Assembly (NCBI GenBank): GCA_951406725.2
Contig: OX597830.1
Span: forward strand, 48,174,001-48,238,000
Length of the DNA stretch: 64,000 nucleotides
DNA from: Octopus vulgaris
Taxonomy: Eukaryota
Direction: 5' to 3'
The notes beneath the pieces were generated by a model. It was given only the letters and a program-made list of their open reading frames with translations, did no database searches and was not told where the DNA came from. Made by a program: the position numbers and the translations under genes. Below, piece by piece: positions 33,501-54,240 of this stretch (position 1 is the first letter of the stretch; each line of letters begins with the position of its first letter).

Positions 33501-36500
33501 CCTTTTCTGTGGAAGGGGCACGTTCCACTGGTCAGGCGCTCCATCTACTGTCAACAGTCACTGAATGGAGGGCTGGGCATGCCGTGGTTACTAATGCGCA
33601 GACATTCATTAAGTTTGCGGCATCTCCAGCGTTTCCTTGACGATGAACAGGTGTGGTCACTGTTTGTCAGGTACATTTTTCCATAGACCGTCCCTTTGAC
33701 TGAGCTGCAAACCTGGATTAAGCGTAGACCGAAGAGGGGCTGCTTGTCTACGCCCTCCGCCAGGCGAACAATGAGGTCGGTGTAGTTCCATTCTAGCGTT
33801 CTATAGAGGGCTAGTGGAAGGATATTGTGACGACGTTCTCGGGGAAACTCTAGGCGTCGATGAAGATCAACGAAATGGTTTGTTTCGGACAACTTTCTGG
33901 CCTAGGCCTATGAATAAGTTCGAGAAGTCCCTTGCCTTGCGGTGCCACCGAGGGGCGCTGCCTGTTTGAGATAAACTTTACAGGTACGGAAGTGCCATTA
34001 ACCAGGCCTGCCCGAGGTGTGCCCAGAACGATGAAATAGTTCTACACGCCCTCGTCCAGTGTCCGAATATTGCTGACCTCTGCGGGTTTATGTCGAACAC
34101 CTACAGTCACGTGTTGGACGGATCCGGCTATCAGCTGAATCCATAGAGTATTTCAACTACCGCCCTCCTTTGGCTGGGAGGAGCAGGCAATTTTTATTTG
34201 TTTAGTGGCTCTAGCGAAATCGGTAGTATGGTGGACTCGTCAGAAATGGCTAAAGTCAGAGACTTTCCTCTTTGTTGTTGTTTTTGTTGTTGTTGTTGTT
34301 GTTGTTATTATTATTATTATTATTATTATTATTATTATTATTATTATTATTATTATTTTTATTATTATTATTATTATTATTATTATTATTATTATTATTA
34401 TTATTATTATTATTATTATTATTATTATTATTATTATTATTATCCCCACTTTTATCACCACAATATTATCACAATATTGATGTCTCTTAAAGAGTAGAAA
34501 ATATATCTATTATTTCTCATTATTCAAAAATAATAACACTGTACAACGTGAAATAGTCCCACCTCCATTACGAAAAACTACAAAAGACAACATTGATTTA
34601 TTTACCTTCTTATTCTTACAGGAATATGTCCTTTAGATTTTATTGACAAAGCCGCTATACCTTCTCACTATGATTTGGGTGTCTTTTCTGGTTCCAATTA
34701 TACGCAATGTCTGCTCAATTGCGAAGCAATACCAACTTGCCAATCGTTTGACTATAACTTTAATTACAAACAATGCTTGTTGGTATCTAAAGATCATACA
34801 ACTGCTCAATTGAATTTTTACACAGATTGGACTTACACCGAAATAAACAGAGGTAAGTGCGTCATTTTCTTGTTTTTATTTATTTATTTTGTTGGAATTA
34901 TACGCAGTCAGTTGGACAAGACTAAGGCACCACCTTCAAAAATGTGTTAGTCTGTTATATTGAGGTTGGGACTTTGATTTACTTGGCTCTATCGATTGGC
35001 TAAGTCCAATGTCATATAAAGGTATGGACTCAATAACTAATTAGATAGATAGATAGATAGATAGATAGATAGATAGATAGATAGATAGATAGATAGATAG
35101 ATAGATAGATGACAGGCATAGATAGATAGACATACATACATACATAAATAGATAGATAGATAGATACATACATACATACATACATACATACATACATACA
35201 TACATACATACATACACACGCACAAACTCATACATACAGATAAACTATACGTAAGATACTCAATGAACAAGAGGGACAAAGATAGCACCAAACCTCCATG
35301 CTGTGATGGAAAATGTTGGCTCAGCTATACCAGTGTGGAAGATGTCACCCACATCATCAGTAGTTGCGACAAAATGCCTACGAGATTCTACCTGCCCCTG
35401 AGGCATGATATAGTTGCAAAGACTATTTACGATGCTACCCATAGGAAGGACTGCTCGGACGTATACATCAAAGCCATGTTAGAACCAGCAAGTAATCAAA
35501 CCTTTTGAAAGCAAGGAATACAGGTGGAACTCCCACCAAAAACAAACATCAATTCGGTGCAAATATAGCAGACCTGATATTGTTCTGTGGCACAGGGGAA
35601 AAAAGTCATGCATTGTTGTAGGGGTCAGCTGCCTAGCGGATGTGAATGTACAATCAAAAGTTTTAGTAAAATAGAACATTTAAGAAAAACTTACAGCTCT
35701 TGTACCCTGACCATAAAGTCTCGTTTGCACCTTTCATCAGAAGTGCATTAGATTACGTAGCAACAATTTTGCACATTTGCAGAAAAACCTATAAATACTC
35801 GGTTTCTCAGAGAAGAGCAAAAGAAAAACTGACGCGGATTGTCCAAATCGAATCTTTTAGTGCCGCAGTGAAGGTTTGTAAAACATTCCCAAACTATTCC
35901 ATCTGTGATTCTTAGGTGAATAGATGTACACGATTGAGTGTATGCATCGACAGTGCCACCAACACACCAACTCAACCACATATTTTCAATCACCGGGAAC
36001 TCACTCATCTCAAAAACTCTTGTCGCTTTTTTACCGACTGTATGACTATTGCATTCAGATGGCAGGAATTTTCTCCAATTGGCTTCTTGCGTTGAAAGAC
36101 AATTTGAAACAGCGAAGTGTGTACAGACACAAAAGTATGCTTCAAACTGCTGACAGACCAATTCTTTCAATAGAACCTGTCTTGAAGCCCCAGAACCAAG
36201 TCAGATGTTGTGCCTGGGGAGACGCTGTTTCCTTTACGACCCTGTCTCTTTGAATTATCATCAAAACCCAGCAGCAACCGGGTTTCTTTATTGAGGAGTG
36301 GTGGAGTGAAACGATCTTGTACCAGACTTTTCTAGAGAAAGGGAATTCATCACCTTTAAGGGACTGCATCAATCCCTCAACAGTGATGATGTTGACTGCA
36401 AAGGAAGTCATTTGGAAAGCAATTTTATATTTACTGATGTAACAATTTTCAGTGTCGATGTTGCCTGCCTTTGTGTGTTTCATTTTGTTTTTGTATATTC

Positions 36501-52100: not shown

Positions 52101-54240
52101 TTCAGAAGACTGAGGTTGGTGTTGCGCTAAAAATTGACTGGATAGAATAAAATCCAAGCAGTCGATACGTGGGCGATAGCATCACTTCGGTATGGAGTGA
52201 GAATTATAAAATGGCAAAAGAGAGAAATGAAGAATACCAAGACCAGAAACATTTTGACCGTGCACGGAGCTTTCCCTCCTAAGAATGACACTTGTCCCAA
52301 AGAAAGCGTGGGAGTGGCTTGATCAATTTCCAGTTGCCAGGACTGTATCGAAGCAGGGAAAAACAACCTAGGGTGGAATATACAAAAACAAAATGAAACA
52401 CACAAAGGCAGGGATCATCGACACTGAAAATTGTTTACATCAGTAAATGTAACATTGCTTTCCAAATGACTTCCTTTGCAGCCAACATCATCACTGTTGA
52501 GGGATTGATGCAGTCCCTTAAAGGTGATGAATTCCCTTTCTCTGGGAAAGTCTGGTACAAGATCGTTTCACTCCACCACTCCTCAATAATGAACCCCGGT
52601 TGCTGCTGGGTTTTGATAATAATTCAAAGAGACAGGGTCGTAAAAGTAATACCATCTCCCCAGGCACAACATCTGACTTGGTTCTTGGACTTCAAGACAG
52701 GTTCTATTGAAAGAATTGGTCTGTCAGCAGTTTGAAGCATACTTTTGTGTCTGTACACACTTCGCTGTTTCAAATTGTCTTTCAATGCAAGACGCCATTT
52801 GGAGAAAATTCCCGCCATCTGAATGCAATAATCATACAGTCGGTAAGATAGCGACAAGAGTTTTTGAGATGAGTGAGTTCCCGGTGATTGCAAATATGTG
52901 GTTGAGTTGGTGGGACTGTCGATGCATACACTCAATCGTGTGCATCTATTCACATAAGAATCACAGATGGAGTATTTTGGAAATGTTTTACAAACCTTCA
53001 CTGCGGCACTAAAAGATTCGATTTGGACAATCCGCGTCAGTTTTTCTTTTGCTCTTTCTCTGACAAACCGAGTATTTATAGGTTTTTCTGCAAATGTGCA
53101 AAATTGTTGCTACATAATCTAATGCACTTCTGATGAAAGGTGCAAACGAGACTTTATGGTCAGGGTACAAGAGCTGTAAGTTTTTCTTAAATGTTCTATT
53201 TTACTAAAACTTTTGATTGTATATTCACATCCGCTAGGCAGCTGACCCCTACAACAATGCATGACTTTTTTCCCCTGTGCCACAGAACAATATCAGGTCT
53301 GCTATATTTGCACCGAATTGATGTTTGTTTTTGCGGGGAGTTCCACCTGTATTCCTTGCTTTCAAAAGGTCTGATTACTTGCTGGTTCTAACATGGCTTC
53401 GATGTATACGTCCGAGCAGTCCTTCCTATGGGTAGCATCGTAAATAGTCTTTGCAACTATATCATGCCTCAGGGGGGAGGTAGAATCTTGTAGGCATTTT
53501 GTCGCAACTACTGATGATGTGGGTGACATCTTTCACACTAGTATAGCAGAGCCGACATTTCCATCACAGCATGGAGGTTTGGTGCTATCTTTGTCCCTAT
53601 TGCTCATTGATTATTTAGTAGTTATCTGTACGTATGAGTGTGTGCATGTATGTATGTATGTATGTATGTATGTATATATGTATGTATGTATGTATGTATG
53701 TATGTATGTATGTATGCATGCATGCGTGCATCAATATATGTATGCATGCAAGTATGTATGTATGAATGTATTTATGTATGTATGTATTATGTATGTATCT
53801 ATCTATCTCTCTATCTATCTAATCTGATATTGAGTCCATACCTATATATGACATTAGACTTAACCAAAGATAGAGCCAAGTAAATCAAAGTCCTGGCCTC
53901 AATATAACAGACTAACACATTTTTGAAGGTGGTACCTTAGTCTTGCCCAACTGACTGTGTATAATTCCAACAAAATAAATAAATAAAAACAAGAAAATGA
54001 AGCTCTTACCTCTGTTTATTTTGGTGTAAGACCAACCCGTGTCAAAATACAACGCAACAGTTGTATGATCTTTAGTTGACAGCTGGCACGATTTGTAATT
54101 AAATTTATAGTCAAACGATTGGCAATTTGGTTTTGCTTCGCAAACAAGCAGACACTGCGTGTAATTGAAGGCAGAAATGACACCCAAATCATAGTTATTA
54201 AGTAGACCAGTTCTGTAAATCAAATCAAAAGGGCATCTTC
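49189..54240 (-). CDS. Copy C, 3' part of paralog: exons 4-6, complement(54010-54240, 49883-49978, 49189-49379); exons 1-3 expected just right of the window
   Basis: Same exon lengths as copy B (231, 96, 191 nt), intact AG/GT sites, open frames, and all core PAN cysteines retained. Confidence 0.85.

Follow-up and report, generated by a model that had tools for sequence, protein, structure and literature searches.

Evidence for repeated diversifying selection and gene conversion at the PAN2 exon of a probably secreted octopus gene family

Conotoxins combine a conserved signal and cysteine frame with a hypervariable mature region, and evolve by tandem birth and death. A peak of divergence under gene conversion, the same as in the octopus family described here, is seen in exon 5 of the human red/green opsins and in major histocompatibility complex (MHC)-type diversification; an excerpt of PMC3924837 treats a raised exon between homogenised introns as the mark of a selected target under conversion. 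Here we analyse a window of 64,000 nucleotides of Octopus vulgaris DNA (C17:48,174,001-48,238,000 of a 2.8 Gb genome), which contains three copies, A (-), B (+) and C (-), of a gene with PAN domains. The complete product of 280 residues consists of a predicted signal peptide, PAN1, PAN2, a linker carrying one cysteine, and PAN3. In this family about 30% of the PAN2 codons evolve at a nonsynonymous to synonymous rate ratio (dN/dS) of 4-5 upon an invariant scaffold. The copies probably belong to a tandem octopus family in which repeated diversifying selection acts on PAN2 codons and conversion shuffles and homogenises the genes, the outcome being a likely secreted, likely binding repertoire.

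Every family locus found in the genome searches lies on C17, with 26 intact PAN2 exons, 25 PAN1 loci and 30 PAN3 loci as lower bounds; 14 of the family genes are clustered within about 0.5 Mb (47.94-48.43 Mb). A sequence-only reading of the window had proposed, from copies B and C, that selection diversifies the exon while its cysteine scaffold stays fixed, and had called for site models over more paralogs. These models do reveal a PAN2 codon class at dN/dS of about 5. For 12 cluster exons the likelihood-ratio test (LRT) of M2a against M1a gave 36.2 (p=1.4e-8, p2 0.31, w 5.0) and that of M8 against M8a gave 36.7, with 12 codons at a posterior above 0.95. The remaining 14 exons gave an LRT of 60.7 with 14 codons flagged, and nine flagged codons are common to these disjoint sets (p=2.5e-6). 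Between 22 and 29% of PAN2 codons fall in a purifying class. Of 213 neutral simulations, 177 of which included conversion, not one attained the observed value of 34.9 (maximum 22.9). The LRT was 25.6 and 40.1 when multi-nucleotide changes were allowed, 13.7 and 10.5 with gamma rate variation, 31.1 for eight non-redundant genes after near-duplicates were dropped, and 25.0 for nine genes with an intact exon 1. The signal thus survives the conversion, multi-nucleotide and rate-variation controls. The proposal of the sequence-only reading therefore stands for the family, where the M2a result was replicated; the B/C pair from which it was drawn, with a dN/dS of 0.90, does not bear it out.

Recent duplicates show the same tendency. 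In six independent recent pairs, replacement differences per site (pN, 47.8/1047, 4.6%) exceeded both silent differences (pS, 6.2/300, 2.1%; p=0.045) and flanking differences (35/2013, 1.7%; p=1e-5), and silent sites did not differ from flanks (p=0.64). The other domains behave differently. PAN1 is weakly diversifying (M2a LRT 22.6, a minority of sites selected), and PAN3 is under purifying selection (M0 dN/dS 0.45, no selected class). Taken together, selection on the PAN2 exon of this family is well supported, and we hold it with high confidence.

The PAN2 exons of copies B and C (Table 1) align without gaps over 231 nt and differ at 45 positions, with 29 of 76 codons changed nonsynonymously and six synonymously. 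These are exactly the counts given by the sequence-only reading, and the five cysteines, the SFDY motif, the frame and the AG/GT splice ends are intact in both exons as it had stated. The intron downstream differs at 13/183 positions, or 11/176 if the count begins past the donor, in agreement with its estimate of about 13 in about 180 nt; the intron upstream differs at 14/168, so that the near introns are 6-8% divergent. Its observation that the exon is more diverged than its own intron was also borne out (Fisher p=2.3e-5 against the near flanks). When the B/C alignment was divided into 231-nt bins, the exon bin (0.195) was the highest of the cleanly aligned bins, and the four bins exceeding it are all heavily gapped. 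However, the ratio of 29 to 6, which had been offered as evidence of selection, is not beyond chance: 45 neutral changes placed at random on the exon gave a mean of 29.1:7.6 (P=0.33, 3001 simulations). By the Nei-Gojobori method (NG86), pS is 0.211 (11/52) and pN is 0.193 (34/176). Taken alone, the B/C pair gives no sign of selection, its 29:6 being the neutral expectation. Silent divergence in this pair is raised no less than replacement divergence, and the exon of copy B lies inside a conversion tract. The sequence-only reading had named this combination as one that would refute its proposal, and for this pair it applies; this does not remove the selection seen at the level of the family.

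A decaying array, in which constraint had relaxed or the exon sat in a mutation hotspot, would account for a pairwise dN/dS near 1, for the broken donor of copy A, for two genes without exon 1, and for two frameshifted partial PAN2 exons found besides the 26 intact ones. Against this, no stop or frameshift occurs among the 26 intact exons, and a substantial class of their codons is purifying. Moreover, the exon changes between B and C comprise transitions and transversions at 21/24 against 156/124 in the introns, so there is no CpG-type excess, and significance persists under rate variation. We consider this explanation scarcely credible.

The segments of these genes have distinct histories, the PAN2 exon being exchanged as a cassette. 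By approximately unbiased (AU) tests no common tree fits the PAN1, PAN2 and PAN3 regions, each rejecting the trees of the others, and the tree of the PAN2 exon is compatible only with its immediate flanks. The introns give tree lengths of 0.23-0.42, whereas PAN2 reaches about 0.6 at silent sites and 1.0-1.2 for replacements; relative to the near flanks, PAN2 is raised 1.6-2.0-fold at silent sites and 3.1-fold at replacement sites. Copy B shares its PAN2 cassette with a paralog at C17:47.97 Mb, 240 kb away: the two differ at 7/444 positions across the exon plus the flank upstream of it and at 117/2316 around them (Fisher p=6e-4). Two further cluster genes, at C17:47,940,872(-) and 48,041,609(+) (L086 and L085), carry an old-lineage PAN2 exon only about 40% identical to that of copy B; its flanks are about 25% diverged, and the PAN1 and PAN3 exons on either side are ordinary.

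These exchanges could suggest that old neutral PAN2 cassettes were simply swapped among copies while introns were homogenised, with no accelerated replacement. The equality of pS and pN between B and C is what such swapping predicts, as are the exon-centred tract shared with the 47.97-Mb gene, the two genes with a divergent PAN2 in an ordinary setting, and the raised silent divergence of PAN2. However, recent pairs with near-identical flanks already hold excess replacements; L086 and L085 differ from each other by nine replacement changes and one silent change in PAN2, with 7/362 differences (about 1-2%) in the flanks. The recurrence of the same codons across disjoint gene sets and the failure of all 213 null simulations to match the data also speak against it. 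Neutral swapping thus accounts for part of the pattern but not for all of it; as the sole cause it is largely refuted, and we judge it very improbable. The exon stands above its introns in the B/C comparison because of excess replacement, which raises dN to 3.1 times the flanks, and of an exon genealogy deeper than that of the homogenised introns, which raises dS to 1.6-2.0 times the flanks: the pattern is selection plus intron homogenisation. In this case a pairwise dN/dS near 1 masks strong selection, since conversion decouples the histories of exon and intron.

Several points weigh against recurrent selection concentrated on PAN2 and should be set beside the tests. The pairwise maximum likelihood dN/dS of B and C is 0.90. 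The codon models are our own implementation of the Goldman-Yang model (GY94) with naive empirical Bayes, not codeml. Conversion inflates the test, as 20 of 105 null runs with heavy conversion exceeded the nominal 5% cutoff, and rate variation lowers the LRT by more than half. In the recent pairs the comparison of replacement with silent sites is marginal, and 23 of the 48 replacements come from one pair. PAN2 is unchanged in three of eight matches to O. sinensis. PAN1 also bears selected sites, so that PAN2 is not the sole variable part. Finally, three of the 14 cluster genes appear 5'-defective, and some of the near-identical neighbouring copies may be alleles.

The variable residues were located on a predicted model of a homolog (P0002, built from a 67-row alignment; predicted local distance difference test score (pLDDT) 88.6, predicted template modelling score (pTM) 0.79), which shows a helical linker besides three PAN folds. 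Its PAN2 domain (E113-120, E128-131, H135-144, E150-154, E159-163, E172-183) has the antiparallel sheet cradling one helix and the four core cysteines of an apple domain. The variable codons are 14 and 15 in the loop after strand 1, 20 in strand 2, 45 at the end of strand 3, 48, 50 and 52 in the hairpin and strand 4, and 61, 62, 64, 66 and 69 in the run into the last strand. They interleave with the conserved C51, L53, L63 and F65 along the predicted strands, and the apple topology would put them on the sheet face away from the helix. In this model the variable codons likely line that face and form a binding site. In the apple module a third disulfide bridges the first cysteine and the last. 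The first cysteine of PAN2 is invariant in 26/26 exons. In the homolog, Cys 111 and Cys 205 are an unpaired pair, the linker cysteine being the only free partner of the first PAN2 cysteine, and these two likely form a disulfide. Separately, in the PAN2 exon at C17:56.996 Mb (L023) the cysteine of codon 29 is lost and a new one stands at codon 42, so that a disulfide may have shifted.

The best PDB sequence matches to PAN2 are the apicomplexan apple-domain lectins TgMIC4 (4a5v, E 7e-7) and SML-2 (2yil, E 3e-6). In the alignment with MIC4/SML-2, hypervariable codons 45 and 52 fall on the asparagine after strand 3 and the aromatic residue after the fifth cysteine, which we take to be pocket residues. 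SML-2 has a lysine aligned to codon 54, three residues past the fifth cysteine, presumably equivalent to K469 of MIC4. The octopus exons have serine (24/26) or valine (2/26) at this codon, and the lysine of the galactose lectins is found in none of the 26. According to excerpts of the two reports, MIC4 apple domains bind galactose (PMC4055764) and this sugar binding requires K469 (PMC6608980). The likeness of PAN2 to TgMIC4 and SML-2 is at the level of the fold only. A Foldseek search with the model returned domains of factor XI/prekallikrein, MIC4, SML-2 and HGF, with whole-chain template modelling (TM) scores not above 0.26.

We propose that a repertoire of secreted binding proteins would have arisen through the joint action of tandem duplication, cassette exchange and positive selection, with PAN2 as its main specificity module and PAN3 with the linker as its constant part. 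Conversion would draw the introns to about 5-6% divergence, and would be selected against where distinct PAN2 exons stood to be erased; silent sites of old exon lineages would then rise alongside replacements. As to the partner, we tentatively favour something non-self, such as glycans or proteins on the surface of microbes or parasites. It is possible, if doubtful, that the genes form a germline recognition repertoire of the octopods' own, in which gene conversion recombines a swappable, selected PAN2 cassette with PAN1 variants upon a constant PAN3-linker base, serving in immunity or allorecognition.

A reproductive role, in recognition between sperm and egg or at the spermatophore or egg coat, driven by sexual selection or conflict, has to be weighed here. 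The product is predicted to be secreted, the genes are lineage-restricted and positively selected, and ZP-type matrix proteins contain PAN domains. PAN2 also changes faster between sister species than the other domains do: against the eight best O. sinensis matches, 19/606 PAN2 residues differ and 9/878 in PAN1 and PAN3 (p=0.006). However, the diversity lies mainly among paralogs, and the identity of PAN2 in three of the eight cross-species comparisons is unlike a species barrier protein. We regard a reproductive role as unlikely. The genes could also encode a salivary or venom component whose paralogs are aimed at different prey proteins. Conserved signal exons and a fixed cysteine frame with a hypervariable mature exon, under tandem birth and death, give the family a conotoxin-like character; on the other hand, the Pfam, PDB and fold searches returned no toxin-like match, and the protein has 280 residues with a constant third domain, which makes this possibility quite improbable. 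For a binding repertoire of the kind proposed above, the short codon list and the at least 26 natural variants would offer a panel for finding what octopuses must recognise, whether pathogens, gametes or prey.

The gene models in the window are listed in Table 1. The six exons of copy B add up to 843 nt in frame, in accordance with database homologs of 280 residues, and its three PAN exons exceed the curated Pfam PAN_1 cutoff of 21.4 bits. The sequence-only reading overlooked the linker exon together with both signal exons. The signal peptide was called by eye from the hydrophobic N-terminus. Sequencing contigs of related organisms, from runs guessed to be RNA, connect 24627 to 25185 across GT..AG in two of four runs, and others start at the acceptor at 39782. 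The linker exons of B and C differ at 2/96 nt. Exons 1-3 of copy C are intact just past the window end. The PAN2 exon of copy A is located before the window start and is 2/231 nt from that of C; copy A is likely non-functional, judged by its exon 1 donor, and as an otherwise near twin of C it could be an allele or a defunct duplicate. By self-BLAST, A/B and B/C are inverted arms, the latter about 87-95% identical, and A/C is a direct repeat about 58 kb apart.

Table 1. Positions of exons, duplicated arms and the shared tract within the 64,000-nt window
Feature	Position	Strand	Evidence or remark
B arm of tail-to-tail inverted duplication	25478..42972	.	self-BLAST and binned alignment
C arm of tail-to-tail inverted duplication	45457-64000		self-BLAST and binned alignment
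Copy B exon 1, ATG and first 10 codons of predicted signal peptide	21458..21488	+	tblastn with O. sinensis homologs, GT donor
Copy B exon 2 (36 nt), remainder of predicted signal peptide	24592..24627	+	protein-identical in 13 other cluster genes
Copy B exon 3, PAN1	25185..25442	+	Pfam PAN_1 26 bits
Copy B exon 4, hypervariable PAN2	34622..34852	+	Pfam PAN_1 33.3 bits
Copy B exon 5 (96 nt), one-Cys helical linker, conserved	39185..39280	+	tblastn
Copy B exon 6, PAN3 and stop	39782..39972	+	Pfam PAN_1 21.8 bits
Copy C PAN2 exon	54010..54240	-	Pfam PAN_1 33.4 bits
Copy C linker exon	49883..49978	-	
Copy C PAN3 exon	49189..49379	-	
Copy A PAN1 exon	5835..6092	-	
Copy A exon 2	6650..6685	-	
Copy A exon 1, AT where GT donor expected	13332..13362	-	
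Approximate conversion tract common to copy B and C17:47.97 Mb paralog	34390..34852	+	boundaries follow the edges of bins chosen to bracket the exon

Among the 14 cluster genes, 12 have an exon 1 with an open frame, one of these with the broken donor (A), leaving 11 intact; for the other two, exon 1 was not found within the 16-17 kb fetched upstream. In the dispersed copies L117 and L123, exon 1 is longer by 2 nt, which would shift the frame. The partial duplicates at C17:48,296,183 and 48,385,933 (L015-L018) have a frameshifting deletion in PAN2 and no PAN1 in the fetched upstream stretches. PAN3 of copy B has an additional cysteine where the other 29 PAN3 loci have asparagine. Two genes carry a tandem duplicate of the PAN3 exon about 770 bp apart (C17:48,021,773/48,022,547 and 48,330,277/48,331,039), which could provide alternative last exons. 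Retroelement remnants (RVT_1, zf-RVT) lie at 9567-11595(+), 19220-19609(+), 2782-3441(-) and 59443-60093(+); the introns are rich in microsatellites, with a high-copy repeat near 30,200-30,800.

All matches in two homolog searches (10 and 12) were from Octopus, and colinear relatives occur in Argonauta, with deeper subfamilies in O. bimaculoides. Proteins of the same family and architecture are the 'Apple domain-containing' entries O. sinensis LOC118761179, LOC118766713 and LOC118766702, O. bimaculoides LOC106868906 and Argonauta hians GAB1605676.1. Such database entries are uncharacterised and several are mis-spliced or partial; standard annotation handles this family poorly. More distant O. 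bimaculoides PAN subfamilies (P0017, P0022, P0024, P0036, P0044, P0020) have the same CP...linker-Cys layout, three of them on a contig that matches the family's own in recorded length, and point to a wider octopod superfamily. A literature search found no paper on the family and no account of the cluster or of its selection; Figure 1 of PMC7656900 carries the label 'PAN domain' among Pfam families shown as expanded, but the main text of that paper does not mention it. The evolutionary pattern is already known, whereas no description of the family, of its scaffold or of its selected sites appears to exist. Cephalopod expansions have been discussed mostly for neural genes; this one is predicted to be secreted and bears a strong, replicated arms-race signature. 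If the more doubtful reading of a germline repertoire is true, the octopod PAN genes would equip an antibody-less animal with immunity or allorecognition specific to its lineage.

The octopus family can finally be compared with known proteins and repertoires. Apple domains of factor XI and plasma prekallikrein and the N domains of HGF and plasminogen are its top Foldseek matches (E 1.5e-8 to 1e-3), single domains superposing on the model at 2-3 Å. However, factor XI and prekallikrein have four apple domains and a serine protease, whereas the octopus protein has three PAN domains and a linker, with neither protease nor kringle; given the low whole-chain scores, its predicted domain arrangement matches none of the factor XI/HGF-type hits. 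Among molluscs, the fibrinogen-related proteins (FREPs) of Biomphalaria and the C1q-domain-containing (C1qDC) proteins of bivalves are likewise tandem-expanded, lectin-like recognition families, and some snail FREP and C-lectin genes are reported to contain PAN/apple domains (PMC7588048, PMC13712769, PMC6835236). The octopus family differs from them in having no fibrinogen, immunoglobulin superfamily (IgSF), C1q or C-lectin domain, PAN itself being the variable module. Like MHC-type systems, it combines a conserved scaffold with codons that evolve at dN/dS above 1, and shows conversion among copies with a peak of divergence on the variable exon. Unlike the opsin or MHC-type peak, it comprises at least 26 paralogs with recurrent selection at about 30% of codons, exchange of exon cassettes and a PAN scaffold.

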